From an uncultured virus (IMG/VR IMGVR_UViG_3300009499_000296) (Duplodnaviria > Heunggongvirae > Uroviricota > Caudoviricetes): a stretch of 20,000 bases of DNA. The first letter of the stretch is position 1, and each line of letters starts with the position of its first letter. Location: IMG/VR virus record IMGVR_UViG_3300009499_000296; one strand, given 5' to 3'. A program made the position numbers and the translations under genes. Of the stretch, positions 421 to 19,452 are shown one piece after another. The notes beneath the pieces were generated by a model, which was given only the letters and a program-made list of their open reading frames with translations, was not told where the DNA came from and did no database searches.

Positions 421-1077
421 CTATCTCCTTCTCAAGTACCCACCAGGATTGGCAGTCACGAAAAATTTCTCCCGGGACCTATCTATGATGAATTGGTCGT
501 TGGTCTTCAGGAACTCTTGCACTGCTTCAAACGGCCCTTCCCCCCAGCCAGGCAACGTTGGGTGCCCATTGAGAGCCGTGTCCTCCACTATCATGTAGCT
601 ACCGGATGACACCAGCCCAGCATACACTTTCATCTCGGCAAGAACATGCGCCTTAATGTGATTTGAATCGAGATCAACTAGCACAACATCACCTGGTCGA
701 ATCAGCGACCTCACCCTGCCTACAATCTCAGGCGCAATAGATGAGCCCTTCAAAAAGGTGATTCCCTCGTGTACCGGCAACCCTTCAGGCTTGAACCAAT
801 CAAAGTGATGGTCTCCATGAATCGGCGGGTACTGAACATCTATACTCACCACCCTACCGCGACCAACAAGATCAAGAATGTTAGCCATGAACAGGGCGCT
901 GCCACCGAACTGCGTCCCGCACTCCACAATGATGTCAGGCTTCACCTCACTTATGATCTCCTGCAACGTCCAGAGATCCTGCGGATACTTTGACACCGGG
1001 TAGCCAAACCATCTCGTGTTCTGCCACACGTGTGAGTCAGAGTAGAACCGCTGAAACTCCTCAACTATCTTCTCCAT
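421..1077 (-). CDS. CmcI / cephalosporin hydroxylase-family SAM-dependent methyltransferase
   Basis: Motifs KYPQDLWTLQEII, KPDIIVECGTQFGGSALF, LVDLDSNH, GSYMIVEDT, GPFEAV and TANPGGYL are characteristic of the family. Confidence 0.9.
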   Translation of the reverse strand: MEKIVEEFQRFYSDSHVWQNTRWFGYPVSKYPQDLWTLQEIISEVKPDIIVECGTQFGGSALFMANILDLVGRGRVVSIDVQYPPIHGDHHFDWFKPEGLPVHEGITFLKGSSIAPEIVGRVRSLIRPGDVVLVDLDSNHIKAHVLAEMKVYAGLVSSGSYMIVEDTALNGHPTLPGWGEGPFEAVQEFLKTNDQFIIDRSREKFFVTANPGGYLRRR

Positions 1078-1111
1078 TTTACGGTCTGTCCCCCAAAGTT
1101 TAAGATACTTA

Positions 1112-1612
1112 TCATTTCCGTATCCAGCCTACTATTTCTGAGCCAGGCGTATTGGCTCTGCCATCTGTGGCTGTCTCCATACCTAGTCTCCTGAGACTTG
1201 GGCGGTACACCGACCAGTAGTGCTGCTCTGTTGGGTTGCCTTGATATACACCTTGGGGATACCTCCCCCAAGGCGCTGCTACTGCCAACAATTGATGTGT
1301 GATAGCAAGTAATCGCTCTATCACATGTGGAAACTCTTTCTGCTCAACGTGCTCAGGGCCATGCCACCACCAGACATAATCAAACCCATCCGATATAGGC
1401 AGCGCCCGCACATCACCAAGCACAATGTTACACAGACGCGGATCCCCCGTAAAGTCACGGGCGTTCTTGGGCCAGATCTCAAGAAGCGTAATTTCATTTC
1501 CAGCGTCAGCTAACTCGGTAAGCCAGGCACACGCATCTAGCCGGGCACCGATATACAACAGTGTCCCTGGCTTCTCAAAGGGCTCAGGAATATGGGGCCG
1601 AATGTCGTGCAT
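1112..1612 (-). CDS. Putative class I SAM-methyltransferase-fold protein
   Basis: TLLYIGA, TLLEIW, VLGDVRAL, FDYVWWWHGPEHV and AAPWG match the motif order of methyltransferase domains; lies in the glycan cluster. Confidence 0.6.
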   Translation of the reverse strand: MHDIRPHIPEPFEKPGTLLYIGARLDACAWLTELADAGNEITLLEIWPKNARDFTGDPRLCNIVLGDVRALPISDGFDYVWWWHGPEHVEQKEFPHVIERLLAITHQLLAVAAPWGRYPQGVYQGNPTEQHYWSVYRPSLRRLGMETATDGRANTPGSEIVGWIRK

Positions 1613-1723
1613 TATGTGACTAACTCCTTACCATAGTATGGATGAAGCTGCATCTTTGGGGGCATTATGCCCTTGTCAAACGGTTCGGGATACCACCACA
1701 CAACAGCGGGGTGTACGCTGTGA

Positions 1724-2602
1724 TCATACTATCTCCATAGTAGAGGGCATAGGTAGCCCACCTACTGCCTGCCTGACCATCTTCCCAAAGGTGTACTCAC
1801 CACACATCATCCGGTGAGTCCTTCGCCCCATCGCTTGCCACCAGTTGTAGTCATCGTTCAGCAGCCGAGCTGCTCTGCCTATTAGCTCATCGTACTCTAC
1901 TTCTATGATACAATGGTCGTCACCACCACGGGTGTAGGGGTAGGCGTCGCTACATGCCTCGGTAAGGATGGGCAATCCAAAGGCAGCGGCCAACGAGAAC
2001 CGCAGGGGCTCCAGGGCAGGGAAGTCATCCTGGTGAACGTTCAGCATGAAACCCGATTCACACAAGGCCTTCTTCCGCTCATCACCCCAACCGTTGGGAG
2101 CCATGCGGATGTTACGTTTTGTGAATTGGGCGCAGATGTGGTTACGTCTCCCATTCTGGTAGCTCATGTGAGCAAAGTCATACTCTCGGGGTCCCTTCTC
2201 TGTGGTGCCCAGCCCTGGGTGGCTCCCCAATATCACAAACCTCACCCGGTCATCATGCATGTGGAACACCAGGTATTTGTCACTGAGCCACACCTCATCG
2301 AAATACCAGTCATCCAGCGCCTCTTTGCATCCCTGCCTATAGGCTGCCATGCCGTAGGAGCCACCGGGGCGCTCAAGGCACCACCAGACCACTCTTGCTC
2401 TGTAATTATCATCTCGGTGTGCATCCCGGTGTGGCTTCCACTCCCCATTGAGAGGGGACACGATGTAGACTGCCTCACGAGAAAAGTTCACCTCATCCAC
2501 ATAACAAGTGGGAAAACCAGACAGCCCTACGAGCTTCCAGTAGTCAGTATATGAATCATATGAGTAGCGGGTTTGGGCGAATACTATGGGCCGTTCTGTC
2601 AC
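1724..2602 (-). CDS. Putative GT-B-fold glycosyltransferase-like protein
   Basis: GTG start at 2602 after GGAGG. C-terminal YDFAHMS...GWGDERKKALCESGFMLNVHQ...LEPLRFSLAAAFGLPILTE resembles GT-B nucleotide-sugar binding domains. Confidence 0.6.
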   Translation of the reverse strand: MTERPIVFAQTRYSYDSYTDYWKLVGLSGFPTCYVDEVNFSREAVYIVSPLNGEWKPHRDAHRDDNYRARVVWWCLERPGGSYGMAAYRQGCKEALDDWYFDEVWLSDKYLVFHMHDDRVRFVILGSHPGLGTTEKGPREYDFAHMSYQNGRRNHICAQFTKRNIRMAPNGWGDERKKALCESGFMLNVHQDDFPALEPLRFSLAAAFGLPILTEACSDAYPYTRGGDDHCIIEVEYDELIGRAARLLNDDYNWWQAMGRRTHRMMCGEYTFGKMVRQAVGGLPMPSTMEIV

Positions 2603-2606
2603 TTGG

Positions 2607-4229
2607 TTACCTCCATGGATGCCACCCGATAAGGGCCTGGAGTTCAGCGATCCTATCCAACCAGGTGTATTTCTCATGGACTAACTCGCTGCCCTCTCGG
2701 GCTATACGTTGTCGGATACTGTCGTGCTCCAAATAGTAGTCAATCTTGCGCACCAAATCATCGTAATCCGACCATGTTTCAAGGTGTATGCCCCGCTTAA
2801 ACTCTTCCTCGATGCCAGGGTAGTCGTGGGTCACGTAGAAAGCACCACTGCCCATCGCGCGAAACAGGCGGTTAGATGTGTAGCGGCGCAAAGAAAGGTG
2901 GGATTGTCCAACGGCGATCTTGCAAGTCCTGTAGCAGGCTGCTTCTTGGCACCAATCCAGCCTCTTGGTAGGAAAGGGCCAGCCAGCACCGTAGACACCG
3001 AAATTGTCGCCGTACCTTTGCCGAAGAAATTTCACCATATCCAAGCGGTGATCCGAGAGTGGGAAGTGACCTGGGTAATTGTTGCCAAGGAAGACAATCG
3101 GTGGGTAGCTATCCCCTGCATGGCTCCAAGGATGAAGAAGGTGATGCCACCAGCCAATCTGTAGGTAGTCTGCCTGTATACCACCCTTGCGGAACTCCTC
3201 TACCCAGTCCATGTTAGTAACCAGCGTCCAATCAATCTCCTTGCCCAGCTCGAAGTACCATCCAGGAATAGGAGCTCGCACGTCACCTGACCAGTTGACA
3301 ATCACCCGTCCCTCATCTTTCATCAGGCGAGCCGTTCTCACATCTATAATACCTGGGGTCTGCAACTGCATAAATACCAAACTGGGGTCCCATTGGTCAC
3401 AGGCAATAATCGCCTCCTCCCTGACCCTTGGCCCCAGCTTTCTCCAGTCTAACTGCTTGTATTCCCCCATTGACCTCAAGGCTCTCTCTAAGCCCGGTTG
3501 GTTTTCGCCTGGTACATTTAGAGCTATATGGAGTATCCTTCTTCTAAATCCTGTAGGTTCATCAATCCCTTTTCTCAAGGAGTAGAACTTCTCGCTATCA
3601 GGATTTACCCCCTCAGGGTTATTTATGTCTCTGAGTTTGTCTTTGGTTGCTAGGTCATGTACTCGGCAATCTCTCAACCCTACAACCTCGTAGCCCATCT
3701 CCATGATGCGACAACTTAACTCGCAGTCCCCTCCATAAGTGTAGAACATGTCGGACCACCACCCCGCTCTATCCCCCAGTTCCCTACGAGTCATCCCCTT
3801 GTTGGCGTAGACTCTTCCAAATACGTGGTCAAACCGATAGTCGGGGCTATACAGGTCGAAGGCAAAAGCCACCTGCCCCACTTCGGGATGGGCCTTCATG
3901 TAATTGTACGCCCGGGCAATGCAATCACCCTGTACTTCATCATCGTCATTGATGTGAACGCAAAAGGGAGCTCTTGCCAGCCTCCATCCAGCAGTGAAGG
4001 CCCGACAGGCTCCCGTGAGTTTGCCCTGTTCCACAACCAGCACATCTTCTTGTTGATGCAACCACGCCAGCGTACCATCTGTACTTCCAGCGTCTACGAC
4101 TATAATCTCATAGGGAATGTCTTCCACCGAGTCCCTAACGCAATAGATACACGACTTGAGTGCTTCCAGCCTATTCCAGGTGCCGAGGATGATACTTATC
4201 TCCACGTCACCTATTTGGTTTCCACCCAT
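2607..4229 (-). CDS. Two-domain glycosyltransferase: N-terminal GT2 plus C-terminal CgeB-like GT-B domain
   Basis: ISIILGTWNR, EIIVVDAGSTDGT and HINDDD (GT2); IVFLGNNY, FGVYGAGW, YTSNRLFRAMGSGAF and DLVRKIDYYLEH...RQRIAREG...YTW (CgeB-like). The true start may be GTG at 4205. Confidence 0.9.
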   Translation of the reverse strand: MGGNQIGDVEISIILGTWNRLEALKSCIYCVRDSVEDIPYEIIVVDAGSTDGTLAWLHQQEDVLVVEQGKLTGACRAFTAGWRLARAPFCVHINDDDEVQGDCIARAYNYMKAHPEVGQVAFAFDLYSPDYRFDHVFGRVYANKGMTRRELGDRAGWWSDMFYTYGGDCELSCRIMEMGYEVVGLRDCRVHDLATKDKLRDINNPEGVNPDSEKFYSLRKGIDEPTGFRRRILHIALNVPGENQPGLERALRSMGEYKQLDWRKLGPRVREEAIIACDQWDPSLVFMQLQTPGIIDVRTARLMKDEGRVIVNWSGDVRAPIPGWYFELGKEIDWTLVTNMDWVEEFRKGGIQADYLQIGWWHHLLHPWSHAGDSYPPIVFLGNNYPGHFPLSDHRLDMVKFLRQRYGDNFGVYGAGWPFPTKRLDWCQEAACYRTCKIAVGQSHLSLRRYTSNRLFRAMGSGAFYVTHDYPGIEEEFKRGIHLETWSDYDDLVRKIDYYLEHDSIRQRIAREGSELVHEKYTWLDRIAELQALIGWHPWR

Positions 4230-4759: not shown

Positions 4760-5014
4760 CTACTCCTCCTTCGGCTCATCTTCCATCTCCTCCAGGATCG
4801 CAATAGTTTGGTCAGCCTCTTTGCGATCTGAGTCCTTTTTGGCTTCAAGCAGATCTGCATAGAAAGTATCCATGAGTTTCTGCCACCAGATAGCGTCAGG
4901 AGCTAGGATTACAAAAGCGCCTTGTTCTGTTTTGGTACATCGGCTAAATAAATGCCTCATCCAGCGAGACCATCTATCGTGCTCTAACTCTGCCAACCGC
5001 TCTCTCAGATTCAT
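4760..5014 (-). CDS. Hypothetical phage protein
   Basis: Starts at the terminase stop; MNLRERLAELEHDRWSRWMRHLFS. Confidence 0.75.
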   Translation of the reverse strand: MNLRERLAELEHDRWSRWMRHLFSRCTKTEQGAFVILAPDAIWWQKLMDTFYADLLEAKKDSDRKEADQTIAILEEMEDEPKEE

Positions 5015-6525
5015 CTACCTCTCCTCACACCCCTGTTCGCTCTCCTTATTCCTCTTCTAGCCCAAAGGTACGGAAGATTGTCCTGTCTCGGTTCTTTCAT
5101 CTGCCTCAAAGGGCGGATCATCCAGGCACTCATCATCAGACATGCCACCAGGTCCTGCGCTATCTTGTCGTCGGGAAGATCGTATTTCCGAGCTTGGGAT
5201 TTCATTCCCCGAATGAAGGGGAAGGACATACCCCGCAGCTCTAACACCATTCTCAGAGCATTGAGGAATCCGAACTTATCCCTTCTGAAGTTTAGCGGCT
5301 CGACTATGATTCCCTCTCTCTCGAAGACGAGCTCGTCCATGTACTTCTGCGTTCCGGTGGTGTCAAACCCACTGTGCCCAGGATACTTCTCCAGGCCATA
5401 CTTGAAGGATGTCATCCACGGCCCGATGCTACCGTTCCCGTACACCCAGTCAAGATAGACTAGTTCCGCCGGCTCCGCCGTTACGTCCCAGCTCATTACT
5501 ACGCCCGATCCGCGTTTGGGGGGGTTCCCCGAGCCCGGATCGCCTGCCGTGATATAAACGTGCCCGTCCTCGTAGGGAAGTTCCCATCTCACACAGCCTA
5601 TTCTTTCCACCTCCTGGTAGTCAGCTCCCATGACGCCATGCTCGATGAGGTCGTCCATCTGCTCCATCATTTCTACGCTCTCGCAGTTGTCGTAGTGACG
5701 CGCAGGGAGGAGCCTCCCCCTTACCTCGGGCCATTCACACTCAATGTAGGTCGGGACGTCCTCTTCCGGGGTGTCCGCTATTATCAAGCGCAACTGCTCC
5801 TCGGTCACGAAGGGGTTGTGCTTGGCCAGTATCTTGATGGAGATATGATCCGGGTTGTTCCCAAGCCCCCGCTCGTACCTCTCCTTGAGTACATCATCTG
5901 TCCCAGGGACGGTAGTGATGGTAAGAAGGCACAGTCTGGGAACTTGTGTACGTTGTCGGATGCCGCGAAGGCGGCTCCTCAGTGCCTTGACCGTCTCAGC
6001 AAAGTCTGCGATCAGAGCACCCTCGTCGATGTTGCCCTGGTCGAACTCCTCCCCCTCAAGGTAGTCCAGGTACTCCGGTTTAGCCGTCAGGAACTCCATC
6101 GTGGACCCGTTCCGGAACCTGATCTGGGGATAAGGGGCCGCTACAACCCTATCAAGGAGGTGCTCAAGTTTGTCGTTGTTGACGATCTCGTCCCTCAAGA
6201 AATCGTACATCAGTCTGGCCTGCCGCCCAATCGGAGCGAGATTGACGAACTTGAAATAGCTCTTGGTCAGACAGTTTGTAAACCCGAAGGCAGCCATGTT
6301 CGTAGTTTTCCCGCTGGCCCAAGAACCTAACCAAAACTGGTTAGGTTGAGGAGCATAGTACATGGGCTTGACAGCAGGGAGGAACTTGCGCCCCCAGTAC
6401 CACTCCAGGAGAATGTCCACATCCCCCGTCTGTTGGGCAGCTGCCAGTATCGCTATGTCATCGGGTTTCATGGCTCCGAGATGAGTGTCAAGGAGCTCAT
6501 GTTGGAATGTCTGTGGAAATTGCAA
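5011..6525 (-). CDS. terL: Phage terminase large subunit
   Basis: Walker A GSWASGKT, LAPIGRQA, IRFRNGSTMEF, Walker B GNIDEG, HNPF, RNase H-like ITAGDPG and C-terminal DLVACL. The start may be ATG at 6471 (MKPDD). Confidence 0.9.
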   Translation of the reverse strand: MQFPQTFQHELLDTHLGAMKPDDIAILAAAQQTGDVDILLEWYWGRKFLPAVKPMYYAPQPNQFWLGSWASGKTTNMAAFGFTNCLTKSYFKFVNLAPIGRQARLMYDFLRDEIVNNDKLEHLLDRVVAAPYPQIRFRNGSTMEFLTAKPEYLDYLEGEEFDQGNIDEGALIADFAETVKALRSRLRGIRQRTQVPRLCLLTITTVPGTDDVLKERYERGLGNNPDHISIKILAKHNPFVTEEQLRLIIADTPEEDVPTYIECEWPEVRGRLLPARHYDNCESVEMMEQMDDLIEHGVMGADYQEVERIGCVRWELPYEDGHVYITAGDPGSGNPPKRGSGVVMSWDVTAEPAELVYLDWVYGNGSIGPWMTSFKYGLEKYPGHSGFDTTGTQKYMDELVFEREGIIVEPLNFRRDKFGFLNALRMVLELRGMSFPFIRGMKSQARKYDLPDDKIAQDLVACLMMSAWMIRPLRQMKEPRQDNLPYLWARRGIRRANRGVRRGR

Positions 6526-6528
6526 CTG

Positions 6529-6765
6529 TCATGTCCTTGCCTCCGTAATCGTGCGAGTGGATATGTGCCATTCTACGGCCTCGCCAACCGCAGTCCCAGA
6601 GCCGGTTACCTCCCCGTTCTGAAGTATCGTGGCATCCCTATCTCCTATCTGGACATTCAGGGCCGGCTGACCGTAGATGTCATCGAGCCTCCGCGTCTTG
6701 ACAAAGCCGAGCGGCAGAAACGGGGGGCCAAACCTTTCTAGCAGCCTCTCCAATTCCTGAATCAT
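6529..6765 (-). CDS. Hypothetical protein, 78 aa
   Basis: AAGGAGG SD before ATG at 6765 (MIQELERLL). Confidence 0.7.
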   Translation of the reverse strand: MIQELERLLERFGPPFLPLGFVKTRRLDDIYGQPALNVQIGDRDATILQNGEVTGSGTAVGEAVEWHISTRTITEART

Positions 6766-6807
6766 CAGTAGCCTCCTTCGTGGGTGCATGGACTTTAATA
6801 GACACAA

Positions 6808-6973
6808 TGGAGATGCCGGGAGTCGAACCCGGGTCCGGGGATCAGTTGCGGAGCTGGTGTAGTCCCAGGGGTGTCCACTCCGGCCCGTTTGGGTCCCGTC
6901 GAGGCCCGGGTTGCGCTGGGATGCGCCGGCACATCCCCTGTAGCACTACCCCGTCGAAGCCTATTCCATCCCC
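6808..6973 (-). ncRNA. ssrA: tmRNA-like RNA, 166 nt, tRNA-like domain only
   Basis: 5' end GGGGATGGAATAGGCTTCGACGGGG; 3' end CCCCGGACCCGGGTTCGACTCCCGGCATCTCCA. Acceptor stem GGGGATG/CATCTCC with G3-U70 and discriminator A; T-arm CCGGG-TTCGACT-CCCGG; CCA not encoded. Confidence 0.88.
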
Positions 6974-7071
6974 TGTTGTAAACATCGCTGGTGGGTCCCC
7001 TATTTCCCCGTTACGGCCCTGTGAATGGCCTACCCACCCCGTCCCACTTGAAGGGGGGAGAATCAAGGAGG

Positions 7072-7350
7072 TTATAGTCTGCCCAGCTCGCCTACGATAC
7101 TGACCAGCGTCTCCAAGGCCTCCCGCGTGCGTCCCGAGATATAGGTTATGCCCCGGAGGATAGAGTCGATAGTAAATATTGGCGAGGTTTGGCCCTCAAC
7201 ACCCTTCCCTCTCGGCTCCATCTTCAAGACCGCCAGGATCTGGTCAACAACGTCCAGCAGCTCTGCTGTCTCTTTAGTTAGCTCTTCGAGACGCTCTCTT
7301 ACTGTAGTCTCTCTCGGATCTGTCCCCGTATGTGTTTGTGCCGTTGGCAT
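7072..7350 (-). CDS. Hypothetical protein, helical
   Basis: GAGGAG SD; tight packing with neighbours. Confidence 0.7.
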   Translation of the reverse strand: MPTAQTHTGTDPRETTVRERLEELTKETAELLDVVDQILAVLKMEPRGKGVEGQTSPIFTIDSILRGITYISGRTREALETLVSIVGELGRL

Positions 7351-7353
7351 CTT

Positions 7354-7749
7354 CTACTCCTCTCTCCAGGCATCGAGTGTCTCGGGATGTTCCCCGACAA
7401 ACCTCACCGCAATGGTAGCCAGGAGCTCATCCCACTTACCCCACTCAATGATGTCCACGAGGAGTTCTGCATCCTGCGGGTTGAGTCCCTGCCTGTTAGC
7501 CTCTAACAGTACTGCCTTAATTCGATTGCTCATTCGAGCCTCCTTGTATTCATCGAAAGCCTCGCGACCTTGCCAATCAAGTTCTGAGCTTAAGTGGATA
7601 GAAACCGTTGGTGCTTCTTCAATCGCGCCACAGAACAGGGGCCCCATTGTAAAATGCGCCAAGTAATCCCCTGCCTCTATAGGACTACCATCCCACGTCC
7701 CAGTGTTGCCAGCCGTATCTTTTGTGTCGCCTGTGTCACAAACGCTCAT
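7354..7749 (-). CDS. Hypothetical protein
   Basis: GAGGAG SD; overlaps the 3' end of the HNH gene. Confidence 0.65.
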   Translation of the reverse strand: MSVCDTGDTKDTAGNTGTWDGSPIEAGDYLAHFTMGPLFCGAIEEAPTVSIHLSSELDWQGREAFDEYKEARMSNRIKAVLLEANRQGLNPQDAELLVDIIEWGKWDELLATIAVRFVGEHPETLDAWREE

Positions 7750-8065
7750 ATTTCTCCTCGACTATTGCCCTGAGATAGTCCCTCATTCTCTCGCCTTGAT
7801 ACATCAGCAGCCGCAACTTCCTTGCCTTGCTCTCTGCTATTCTCCTTCCAGGTACAAGATACCCGTGGTGAGCAGCGTCGTGACAAGTGAGACAGAGGGT
7901 GACTACGTTGGTTTCAATGTCTAATCCCCCGCTCCCCCTGCTCTTGATGTGGTGAGGAGATAGCCCCATCGCCCCTCCGCAATTCAAACACTTCCCGTCA
8001 CGATGTAGAACCATTTCTCGTAACTTCAGCCAATCTGCCCCCTCGCTTCTATCCGACAACATCAA
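7736..8065 (-). CDS. HNH endonuclease
   Basis: W..LREMVLHRDGKCLNCG...PHHIKSRGSGG.D..TNVVTLCLTCHDAAH: zinc-binding HNH; near terL, as for HK97 gp74-type proteins. Confidence 0.9.
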   Translation of the reverse strand: MMLSDRSEGADWLKLREMVLHRDGKCLNCGGAMGLSPHHIKSRGSGGLDIETNVVTLCLTCHDAAHHGYLVPGRRIAESKARKLRLLMYQGERMRDYLRAIVEEKYERL

Positions 8066-8256
8066 TCTCCCTTCACTGCCCCGGCAAGCAACGCAAGCTG
8101 CTTTTCGCTCCTCTGCTCCAAGGCGAACAGCCAGTGATTGTGCGCATTCTGCGCAAACCCAATGGCCAACGCCTCCTCACACCCCAACTTCTTGGCGTGT
8201 TCGTACGCTGCATACGCCAGGTCTACCGCCCTCTCGTTTACCTGTGAGTACTTCAT
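8062..8256 (-). CDS. Hypothetical protein
   Basis: GGAG SD; start and stop overlap the neighbouring genes. Confidence 0.65.
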   Translation of the reverse strand: MKYSQVNERAVDLAYAAYEHAKKLGCEEALAIGFAQNAHNHWLFALEQRSEKQLALLAGAVKGD

Positions 8257-8414
8257 TATCGTAAACTCTCCTGTAGGACTATCCCAATCAAGGTCATCCG
8301 AATCTCCTCCTGAATTTCTGGGTCTGTGCTGTCCCAGACTGCATCGTACCCCTTCCGCTCGAAAAGATCGCGAATTATCGCCTCCGCTATGCGCTCCGCT
8401 TTCTCAAAGTTCAT
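8256..8414 (-). CDS. Hypothetical protein, 52 aa
   Basis: Manual translation: MNFEKAERIAEAIIRDLFERKGYDAVWDSTDPEIQEEIRMTLIGIVLQESLR*; ATGA and TAATG overlaps. Confidence 0.7.
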   Translation of the reverse strand: MNFEKAERIAEAIIRDLFERKGYDAVWDSTDPEIQEEIRMTLIGIVLQESLR

Positions 8415-8608
8415 AGTTCCTCCTCTCTCCGAATCTGCCCGCTGTTATCAGTTCGCAAGTCTTTGATAACGCGCCACACACCCAAGTCTAGCAACGCATG
8501 TTTGGTTAGGGCTTGCAACATAGCATTTGTAGCCCGAGAATCACCAAAGAGCAATCGCGCCACTGCAAATACGATCTCATTGAACGCCTCATTATATTTG
8601 TCCCTCAT
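8411..8608 (-). CDS. Hypothetical protein
   Basis: AAGGAGGT SD upstream. Confidence 0.65.
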   Translation of the reverse strand: MRDKYNEAFNEIVFAVARLLFGDSRATNAMLQALTKHALLDLGVWRVIKDLRTDNSGQIRREEEL

Positions 8609-9588: not shown

Positions 9589-9651
9589 ACTCCTCTGCAT
9601 GGTGCAGCACACTATAAACGTGTGTGGGGGTTCGAATCCCCTAAGAGGAGT
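9589..9651 (+). ncRNA. Degenerate tRNA-like element, 63 nt
   Basis: Acceptor-like stem ACTCCTCT/AGAGGAGT, anticodon-like arm CACAC-TATAAAC-GTGTG and T-arm GGGG-TTCGAAT-CCCC; D-arm minimal, no variable loop. Confidence 0.55.
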
Positions 9652-9870
9652 GTGGTGTCTATTGGGCTCTCCTCTCACGAGAGTCGCTGAGAGAGGCTCA
9701 CCCGTGGGGCATAGAGGCGCTCACACCTGGAGTGAGGCGGCCAGGGGCTGATCCCCCCGTTTGCCTTGGCTTCTATTGCGGGTGCAAGGGTGTGTGGCTG
9801 GTACGGTATTGACCGTACCTACATCACTCAGGGCCTCTCGTGAGGGGAGAGACATAGAAAGGAACGAGCA

Positions 9871-11607: not shown

Positions 11608-11626
11608 GTGAATACGTGAGATAAAC

Positions 11627-11655
11627 TTGACAAAACCGAATATCTGTGCTATAAT
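11627..11655 (+). promoter_or_regulatory. Perfect-consensus sigma70-type promoter, rightward
   Basis: TTGACA-17 nt-TATAAT with TGc extension. Confidence 0.9.
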
Positions 11656-11801
11656 ATGGGGTACAAAGAGACAGTTGCTAGATACCTTATTGCGACAAGT
11701 TGCAATAAGAGGGGGGAAAAATAATACCTCTGTGTGGGGTAGTGGGTATCCGCTGTAAAACTAGGTCGGTTTCATCCGACAACGCATGAAAGGAGTGTTC
11801 G

Positions 11802-12038
11802 GTGAATAAAGCTCTACAGAATGCCCTTGAGCAACTGAAAGGCAGCATTAGGGAGAAGCGCGGGGTCGCAATATTCCCCTACGAGGCCCAAGCCCTGCTG
11901 GATGAACGGACTGCCCTGCGGGACGTGTGCAAGGCACTTAGCGCCTGGTTTGACCAAGCAGGGGTGCCAATGCGGGGCTACAATCCTATCGTAGAGAGGG
12001 CCCGTGTCGCTATTGCCAAGTCATCTGACAACGTATAG
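11802..12038 (+). CDS. Hypothetical protein (unit 1)
   Basis: SD supplied by the repeat; ends ARVAIAKSSDNV* inside the next repeat copy. Confidence 0.75.
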   Translation: MNKALQNALEQLKGSIREKRGVAIFPYEAQALLDERTALRDVCKALSAWFDQAGVPMRGYNPIVERARVAIAKSSDNV

Positions 12039-12052
12039 AAAGGTGAGTAGAA

Positions 12053-12352
12053 ATGAGGTATCAAATCTTCAGTGACGATAAAGTTGGCACATGGGCTGTT
12101 CTGTTTGATCGGTCGCCCTTCTGTTATGGCGAATTGTCGCAAGAGGAGCGGCAAGGGATTGAGGAGATTCTCACGCAGAATAGCCTCATTCGAGACGAGC
12201 AGATAGCAGATGCAATAACCCATCGCAGTGTGCGGGTTCGGGTAAAGCCGCAATTCTGCCTAACACTCGTTGCACCTAACGCGGCTAGTCGCTACGATGA
12301 ACTGCCAGGATATAGCTATTGGGATGATCCTACTCCTGGCGAGGAAAGGTAA
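12053..12352 (+). CDS. Hypothetical protein (unit 2)
   Basis: AAAGGTGAG SD. Confidence 0.7.
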   Translation: MRYQIFSDDKVGTWAVLFDRSPFCYGELSQEERQGIEEILTQNSLIRDEQIADAITHRSVRVRVKPQFCLTLVAPNAASRYDELPGYSYWDDPTPGEER

Positions 12353-12430
12353 TACCTCTAAGTGGGCTGGGGTTCTTGGGGTGTGTGAGTGTGACAATTT
12401 CATCTGACAACGTATGAAAGGAGAAACGGA

Positions 12431-12634
12431 ATGACAGACGCACGCTATTTTGAGTGCCAGACTTGTAGCCAAGTCGTACAGGGCTGGCACGCAGCACACG
12501 AGTGGATTCAGTGTTGCTCCCGTCCCCATTATCATGAAGTCCCGGGGCCGCAGGAGGAGCCGGAGAGGTTCTGGTGCGCATACTGTGGCACAGAGTATGA
12601 TGGGCATCACGACTGCCCTAATCCCAGGCTATAG
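12431..12634 (+). CDS. Small Cys/His-rich putative Zn-binding protein (unit 3)
   Basis: CQTC...CC; CAYCG...HDC. Confidence 0.7.
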   Translation: MTDARYFECQTCSQVVQGWHAAHEWIQCCSRPHYHEVPGPQEEPERFWCAYCGTEYDGHHDCPNPRL

Positions 12635-12680
12635 CTTGCACGGGCTATGTCATCCGACAACATATGAAAGGAGTGAAGGC

Positions 12681-12896
12681 ATGGCTGCTTCGATTATCCC
12701 AGCGGCAGGGTCAGCGTTTGGGCCTTGCCTGAAGGCATGTGAACACAGAGATTGTGCCGAGCTTCGACAAATGGCATCAGAACTCTGTGTCATTTGTGAC
12801 GAGCCTATCAGATACGAGAGACTGTTCTATCGAGAGGGCAAGTGGTTTTACCATGCGCTCTGTCTGTTACGAGAGAAGTGGGTTGTCGGTGTGTAG
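12681..12896 (+). CDS. Small putative Zn-finger protein (unit 4)
   Basis: GPCLKACEHRDC; CVICDEPI...YHALC. Confidence 0.75.
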   Translation: MAASIIPAAGSAFGPCLKACEHRDCAELRQMASELCVICDEPIRYERLFYREGKWFYHALCLLREKWVVGV

Positions 12897-12940
12897 GACT
12901 AGGCTGATTCCATCCGACAACATATGAAAGGAGGCAATGA

Positions 12941-13195
12941 ATGGAAACACCGTGGCAGGAGGTACAGAGAGCCTTTCTTGACAGGCAAGAGGTAACCGTA
13001 ACCGTCTCTAAGATAGACTGGTTGGGTTGTTTGGAATGGCTCATCCACTATGACTGTGTTGTACAGGTTAAGCATAGTGGCCCCAACTATCGTGTAACCT
13101 TGGTGATGGGCCCCTCTGCTCGGAAGTACTGGAACATCAAGAGCGGCCAAGCCCGCGCTGCCATCGCCCAAGCTACGTCATGCGACAACGTATAA
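12941..13195 (+). CDS. Hypothetical protein (unit 5)
   Basis: AAAGGAGG SD; ends ARAAIAQATSCDNV* inside a repeat copy. Confidence 0.7.
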   Translation: METPWQEVQRAFLDRQEVTVTVSKIDWLGCLEWLIHYDCVVQVKHSGPNYRVTLVMGPSARKYWNIKSGQARAAIAQATSCDNV

Positions 13196-15898: not shown

Positions 15899-15908
15899 AG
15901 TACCCCCT

Positions 15909-15937
15909 ATTATAGCAGAAAGGACCGTACATGTCAA
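15909..15937 (-). promoter_or_regulatory. Perfect-consensus sigma70-type promoter
   Basis: TTGACA-17 nt-TATAAT with TGc extension, 10 nt upstream of ATG 15898. Confidence 0.88.
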
Positions 15938-16227
15938 GTATTACAGTCGGACCGTGGACGACAGATGGTCAGGTAGTCTTTCCAGAGGGTGATTCCGCTA
16001 ATATCGTGGCGGCTGTCAGGACACCCAAAGGGGGAATGCGGGAGCTGTTTGCCAACGCTTATCTCATGGCTGCGGCACCGGAGCTGCTGGAGGCTTGCGA
16101 GCGAATGTTCAATAGCCTTGCCGCTTACCTTGATTATGCCCGAGATTCGCTAAAGGAGCAATGCTACGCACCGCGGGAAAGCCTAGAACTTGGCCGGGCC
16201 GCTCTTGCCAAGACGAAGGGAGAATAG
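15931..16227 (+). CDS. Hypothetical phage protein
   Basis: GPW...ANAYLMAAAPELLEACE...RAALAK, a pattern common in small phage proteins. Confidence 0.8.
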   Translation: MSSITVGPWTTDGQVVFPEGDSANIVAAVRTPKGGMRELFANAYLMAAAPELLEACERMFNSLAAYLDYARDSLKEQCYAPRESLELGRAALAKTKGE

Positions 16228-19338: not shown

Positions 19339-19452
19339 GGAGAGCCCTGCAAACTATCTGACAACATATGAAAGGATGCGCATAGAGACAATCTACAGGG
19401 CTCCTGCTGGAAGAGTAACGGGAGCCCTGTGTTTACCCAAAAGGGAGGGATA

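Follow-up and report, generated by a model that had tools for sequence, protein, structure and literature searches.

The window analysed here, the whole 20,000-nt stretch of phage DNA, carries on its minus strand a short tmRNA gene that keeps an intact alanyl tRNA-like domain and has no tag frame. The gene is one member, of unusual length and the least well supported by comparison, of a class of short tag-less tmRNAs in uncultured phages, and it is the census of this class that carries most weight. By analogy with characterised forms, its RNA is tentatively best read as an alanylated competitor for SmpB and stalled ribosomes, a reading that we hold at slightly less than even confidence. The gene and its parts are:

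6808..6973 (-): short tag-less tmRNA gene, 166 nt up to the discriminator base (RF00023, pattern versus shuffles, sequence)
6967..6973 (-): 5' strand of the acceptor stem, RNA 1-7, bearing G3 of the G3-U70 alanine identity pair; 7/7 pairs with 6809-6815
6808..6815 (-): 3' strand of the acceptor stem (RNA 159-165) with U70, plus the discriminator A
6953..6961 (-): D-loop analogue GGCUUCGAC, RNA 13-21, SmpB-facing (RF00023 consensus alignment)
6949..6953 (-): 5' arm of helix 2a, RNA 21-25; 5 pairs with 6836-6840, predicted probability 0.03
6836..6840 (-): 3' arm of helix 2a, RNA 134-138 (sequence)
6816..6832 (-): T-arm, RNA 142-158, with 5/5 pairs and the loop UUCGACU
6841..6948 (-): 108-nt G+C-rich interior in place of the mRNA-like domain, with competing folds and no tag frame

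The Rfam tmRNA model RF00023, a search proposed by the first-pass annotation of this DNA, matches at 6973-6805 with 53.2 bits (E 1.3e-18; cut-off 47) and is the sole Rfam family with an E-value up to 1 in the window. Both ends of the model are matched and its middle is skipped, which bears out the earlier description of two tmRNA termini in normal order only 166 nt apart and supplies the strand, minus, that this description lacked. A pattern of the 5' and 3' ends likewise found one match in the window and none in 200 shuffles. The G3-U70 pair, the discriminator A, the D-loop analogue, helix 2 (arms CGGGG/CCCCG) and the perfect T-arm that had been listed are all seen in the sequence; CCA is not encoded (UUG follows). 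The RNA thus combines a D-loop motif without D-stem, a helix 2 that replaces the anticodon arm and a T-arm, the features by which a tmRNA is recognised. The other proposed search found nothing: ARAGORN made no call at the 166-nt RNA in the window.

Three other explanations were rejected. First, a tRNA-Ala or pseudo-tRNA does not fit, as there is no D-stem or anticodon arm, ARAGORN makes no call and the best Rfam match is tmRNA. Second, an attP site or ssrA fragment of an integrating element is contradicted by the presence of both, complementary, gene ends; no integrase was found among the 43 and 30 window ORFs scanned. Third, against a misassembly of the 166-nt gene, a contig from a separate assembly of a run that may be the source, and hence not an independent sample, covers 5500-8500 unbroken, with 0 differences and no joints.

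The interior measures 108 nt between the helix 2a arms and not about 95 nt as first estimated, and is indeed GC-rich (69% G+C over RNA 22-138). The interior pairings that had been named exist, but they form one of several competing folds lying within 5 kcal/mol, and the folding energy of the RNA is no better than that of shuffles (z -0.64). A 16-pair interior helix (RNA 25-43/100-115), picked after looking, failed to beat 12 of 1000 shuffles with one choice of segment and 107 of 1000 with a second. When the acceptor and T stems are constrained, helix 2a has a probability of 0.03 in nearest-neighbour folding, its fold being 3.4 kcal/mol worse than the competing one. As helix 2a is predicted below 0.1 also in 21 of 117 other short forms (among the matches listed), we take this weakness as a caution and not as a refutation.

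In agreement with the first-pass annotation, no Ala-Ala-stop tag is present: three-frame translation of the RNA yields no tag-like peptide, and no A-nnn-GCN frame ending in a stop was found inside it, a test by which 8/10 distinct 211-238-nt viral forms (among the matches listed) yield a frame ending Ala-Ala-stop. Downstream of the helix 2 5' arm the only stop is the TGA at RNA 130 (6844-6842), as had been noted, but the claim that no stop precedes it overlooked TAG triplets at RNA 11 and 26, both of which precede any point at which translation could resume. The place of the resume codon is occupied by AAACGG-GCC (RNA 84-92), whose frame has no stop in the RNA; A86 is given as the key frame determinant in tmRNA in the accessible text of PMC2481249. 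Pseudoknots 1-4 of standard tmRNA are missing, with no room for pseudoknots 2-4, and a possible pseudoknot or pseudoknot-1 relic seen by eye at RNA 64-92 resembles full-length tmRNA bodies no better than shuffles do. For the interior as a whole, comparison with full-length tmRNA bodies gave no likeness above shuffles in 9/9 scored.

The genes around the RNA identify the window as phage DNA, with terminase, HNH, glycosyltransferase and methyltransferase genes all on the strand of the RNA:

5011..6525 (-): terminase large subunit, packaging operon (PF03237, E 9.2e-06; 8 homologs)
6529..6765 (-): 78-aa orphan ORF directly downstream of the RNA (near-length search)
7072..7350 (-): 92-aa ORF of no known family, directly upstream of the RNA
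7736..8065 (-): HNH endonuclease gene, which abuts or lies near terL in relatives without the RNA

A near-length search among 5.8 billion clusters found only the 78-aa ORF itself. The glycosyltransferase and methyltransferase genes (PF00535, PF13524, PF04989) lie right after the terminase gene at 421-4229 (-), as they also do in one relative (L222). No sigma-70-like promoter was found within 6400-7500, from which we infer that the RNA is co-transcribed with the packaging genes.

Relatives of the terminase were absent from IMG/VR, and tblastn gave no match among cultured phages. Three terminase-related metagenome loci were obtained, two of which span the HNH-terminase interval (62% identity) and are not close relatives of the window phage; the HNH and terminase genes abut in one (L221) and are separated by about 490 bases of other sequence in the other (L223). 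Neither carries a tmRNA end or a full-length ssrA in this slot, which argues that the RNA is accessory, and the slot between the HNH and terminase genes is variable. Of the observations that the first-pass annotation had named as fatal to its proposal, a misassembly, a full-length ssrA in relatives (2/2 spanning loci inspected) and a tag frame were looked for and none was seen.

The position of the RNA within an operon-like run of same-strand genes would also suit a cis-acting processing signal, an RNase P site at which the packaging transcript is cut ahead of the terminase gene. Across the class, the nearest ORFs are on the strand of the RNA in 85/114 cases upstream and 73/115 downstream (among the matches listed), and in a predicted fold, itself no better than shuffles, a leader at about 7071-7062 is able to base-pair with the ribosome-binding site of the gene that follows. 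RNase P, however, needs only an acceptor stem and T-arm, leaving the tmRNA-specific D-loop motif, helix 2 and G3-U70 unexplained, and we regard this explanation as very improbable. A decoy for, or a replacement of RNA lost to, host defence RNases that cut tmRNA or tRNA is improbable too, if slightly less so. Defence systems are predicted to target tmRNA through SmpB-like domains (according to the accessible text of PMC11090510), and a second tRNA-like element is present in the phage DNA (9589-9653); but the prediction is computational, nothing ties the window RNA to such a system, and a decoy need not retain alanine identity so strictly. Both the decoy and the processing signal have little direct support.

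The second tRNA-like element (9589-9653, +) has an 8-pair acceptor-like stem, a shrunken D-arm, a 6-pair arm with a 7-nt loop and a T-arm (z -2.8), and is missed by both ARAGORN and Rfam. It is directly followed by a strongly structured 185-nt element (9667-9851, +; z -4.6; no Rfam match) that is closed by 28-nt inverted arms and precedes a ribosome-binding site. Elsewhere in the window, near-consensus sigma-70 promoter-like stretches that are convergent and mutually alike lie at 11625-11664 (+) and 15900-15939 (-), and a motif of about 24 nt with a ribosome-binding site at its end recurs before several small genes (11754-12935, 13172-13194 and 19356-19379, +; families D1-D3), where it probably serves the phage as a regulatory site.

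The census was drawn from IMG/VR scans for the two tmRNA ends at differing spacings, which returned 2, at least 120, 43 and 55 loci; 220 rows, window included, were analysed, with 54 of the 55-locus scan taken in. A filter for a GGG start, at least 6/7 acceptor pairs and at least 4/5 T pairs was passed by at least 150 rows (113/120 among the matches listed, 24/43, 10/54, 2/2 and the window), and helix 2 was present in only 3 of the 70 rows dropped (among the matches listed). The retained rows comprise at least 128 distinct sequences, which by length (among the matches listed) divide into 62-95 nt with 95 sequences, 116-137 nt with 21, 162-166 nt with 2 and 211-238 nt with 10.

Two lines of evidence indicate that the short phage forms are maintained. 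First, at least 116 distinct forms of 62-137 nt (loci L003-L165) have co-varying stems: helix 2 positions 2-7, left free by both the pattern and the filter, form pairs in 114, 111, 104, 107, 102 and 90 of 116 (among the matches listed) against shuffle means of 47-52, with all pair types in use, these counts being inflated by related sequences. A MAFFT alignment of 78 short forms had its 5' ends misaligned, and as RNAalifold recovered from it nothing but the T-stem, pairs were counted by position instead. Second, the pattern with U70 returned TLD-only genes at 113/120 loci (among the matches listed), whereas the same scan with C70 in place of U70 returned tRNA pairs at 14/14 loci and TLD-only genes at 0/14, which argues that alanine identity is selected in the class. 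Judged from these sequence comparisons, there is class-wide selection on the SmpB- and AlaRS-facing parts of the short phage forms. Rfam scored 6/6 viral examples tried above the cut-off, and ARAGORN called 0/117 short forms (among the matches listed). Flanking genes vary, the largest protein cluster touching only 8/128 distinct forms (among the matches listed), and the lack of a common neighbour suggests that the RNA acts alone with host factors.

Some longer forms depart from this scheme. The 162-nt form of an unrelated A+T-rich phage (L001:3001-3162, -) has, after a resume-like context, GCA directly followed by UAA, a possible one-codon tag, and some 130-137-nt viral forms (L124, L125, L140, L143 and L155), in which a resume-like context accompanies a short open frame whose end is not Ala-Ala, may add non-degradative tags.

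The first-pass annotation had called for phage homologs of conserved short length, and what emerged is a class of short forms but no homolog of the 166-nt form, either in the IMG/VR or in the GTDB genome pattern scans. A strict pattern retrieved from IMG/VR two contigs of one unrelated phage. A relaxed one retrieved 33 loci, of which a 153-nt form (L264) and the 162-nt form (2 loci) pass the tests for acceptor stem, T-stem and helix 2; L256 is a doubtful case, and all others were discarded because they fail. Of the 14 loci of the GTDB scan, 8 are matches inside full-length tmRNAs and 4 are short forms; the other two are a tRNA pair and a chance match. In cultured phages the window RNA was matched at its 3' end only, to other tmRNA or tRNA ends, and BLAST against 5 genomes gave T-arm matches only, thus pointing to no donor or host lineage; a search for a holder of the RNA listed none. 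Neither its interior (L264 being outside the alignment) nor its flanks are shared with any other short form. With no homolog of the 166-nt form, selection on the window copy is not shown by co-variation. The earlier proposal of selection rather than decay therefore stands for the class, through the co-variation and the U70/C70 control, and only indirectly for the window copy, where it is partly supported by a perfect tRNA-like domain and an interior unlike full-length bodies.

Short ssrA genes also occur in bacterial genomes. In addition to a full-length ssrA close to smpB, two MAGs labelled Saccharibacteria have a tag-less ssrA paralog of 152-156 nt close to rplJ; the loci noted in this connection are:

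L232:4001-4156, L237:2225-2376, L285 and L289: Saccharibacteria and related loci

A second short RF00023 match over the cut-off is present in 7/31 related genomes (G001, G002, G010, G013, G019, G023 and G025), and 4/9 of the Saccharibacteria-related loci examined were confirmed, with 7/7 acceptor pairs. This paralog is a chromosomal counterpart of the tag-less phage RNAs. Of another type are L236:4001-4161 (161 nt) and L239:4001-4174 (174 nt), each the sole ssrA of its MAG and internally deleted, either as a deletion allele or through misassembly; L239 adjoins smpB and keeps a complete tag frame, and L236 has no complete tag frame. According to the accessible text of PMC11915505, curators reject such deletion-type short ssrA in older MAGs.

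Because deletion-type genes occur in MAGs, one can conceive of the window RNA, a singleton, as a decaying remnant, a full-length phage ssrA that lost its middle and is now neutral or vanishing. Its absence from both terminase relatives that span the slot, its weak helix 2a and the lack of a folding signal would all be consistent with decay. On the other hand, its tRNA-like features are flawless, its interior shows no likeness above shuffles to the 9/9 full-length bodies scored, the deletion-type genes retain pseudoknot 1 sequence recognisable by eye, and phages have a large and conserved class of short forms. We therefore consider a remnant unlikely, though less so than a decoy.

In the competitor reading, the window gene would have arisen from a tmRNA that lost its mRNA-like domain and would serve the phage as an accessory RNA gene. 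Transcribed with the packaging operon, the RNA would, going by tmRNA biology, be excised by host RNase P and 3' nucleases and receive CCA; host AlaRS would charge it with alanine, and host SmpB and EF-Tu would bind it. Offering no template to switch to, it would compete for SmpB and stalled ribosomes with the tmRNA of the host, so that fewer phage proteins would be ssrA-tagged and degraded late in infection. This reading presumes that the phage benefits from less trans-translation, and some hybrid lambda phages need tmRNA (stated in the accessible text of PMC2481249). Moreover, titration reportedly works whether or not the molecule is chargeable, so that a pure sponge does not explain the strict G3-U70.

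That strictness, kept across the class, favours a more active role, in which Ala-RNA with SmpB enters stalled ribosomes and accepts the chain, further copies follow, and a template-free alanine tail or tag-less release results, as has been suggested for mitochondrial tmRNA. Polyalanine synthesis by TLD-only tmRNA and SmpB proceeds in vitro without mRNA (as cited in PMC2481249 and PMC3929946), TLD with SmpB accepts peptides (accessible text of PMC3895274), and tag-less mitochondrial and plastid tmRNAs persist (accessible text of PMC11915505). However, what the same text reports from the one in vivo test of a phage form is that host tmRNA is inhibited, and the RNA offers no stop codon, so that release would need another factor, no gene for which recurs beside the RNAs (among the matches listed). 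We give this active-donor explanation a minor chance of about one in several; it overlaps with the competitor reading because entry into the A site would itself inhibit tagging.

Taken across the class, and with a similarly modest probability, the tag-less tmRNAs could be a widespread, annotation-invisible phage RNA family kept chargeable by acting on the ribosome, an RNA-only takeover of rescue. This proposal draws on an IMG/VR count of at least 116 distinct forms, which fall into several size classes, the 166-nt gene being the longest tag-less one found. Together with host SmpB such RNAs would seize stalled ribosomes, adding template-free alanine or releasing chains without a degradation tag. 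The 2014 and 2025 tmRNA surveys (PMC4131195 and PMC11915505), as far as their accessible text goes, name the tag-less form for a single phage; more than 100 distinct, co-varying, alanine-specific forms missed by ARAGORN turn a curiosity into a recurrent, testable phage strategy against trans-translation and offer naturally occurring RNAs with which to inhibit a pathway that many bacteria cannot do without.

That single phage is mycobacteriophage DS6A, whose tmRNA is entered as 'TLD only' in PMC4131195. Strong inhibition of tmRNA by a DS6A-like molecule, whether or not this can be charged, and titration of SmpB as its possible cause are what the accessible text of PMC4131195 states and that of PMC11915505 repeats. 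The latter survey covered RefSeq viruses and added CDS-less plastid forms, and its accessible text names no phage case but DS6A. The TLD-only phage tmRNA and the SmpB-titration idea are thus already published, and the first-pass annotation, which had offered an SmpB sponge among its proposals, overstated the novelty. What is new is the scale in IMG/VR, with the proviso that the tmRNA sequence database of PMC11915505 may already list some forms; no wide phage family of tag-less tmRNAs appeared in the literature searched, most subscription papers lying outside that search.

Compared with standard tmRNA, the window RNA scores above the RF00023 gathering cut-off through both ends, but it has less than half the length, no resume context, no tag frame, no pseudoknots 2-4 and no ARAGORN call; lacking the tag frame and the pseudoknots, it falls outside the standard tmRNAs. 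Organellar tmRNAs without a CDS (mitochondrial RF02544, which has no match in the window, and plastid forms of about 65 nt in Mallomonadaceae) likewise have a tRNA-like domain without tag frame, but they are the organelle's only tmRNA and usually permuted, whereas the window RNA is an extra copy in a cell that presumably has its own ssrA. The 116-162-nt tag-less forms (L001, L056, a subset of L123-L165, and L264) also join a tRNA-like domain and helix 2 to a structured insert, but share neither interior sequence (L264 being outside the alignment) nor flanking genes with the window RNA.

The closest comparison is with DS6A itself. We located its gene at JN698994 28478-28557 (80 nt; 43.2 bits on RF00023 versus 53.2 for the window RNA), unannotated in its record between same-strand genes and listed as Phage__Mycobacterium.9 in the tmRNA database. 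Both RNAs are phage-borne, with tmRNA ends in normal order, G3-U70, T-arm, helix 2 and no tag frame. However, a small hairpin caps helix 2 in DS6A, whereas the window RNA lacks both this hairpin and the length of about 80 nt, having 166 nt with a 108-nt interior. As this interior is unrelated to DS6A, the window RNA is probably an independent reduction, judging from sequence. The motif of the DS6A apical hairpin is found again in the IMG/VR class of 76-82 nt, which identifies that class as the DS6A family. With a phage genome, an intact tRNA-like domain and no tag frame in common, the window RNA belongs to the same kind as the DS6A TLD-only RNA, though outside its 80-nt family, and may work like it, a mode of action to which we give not quite an even chance.
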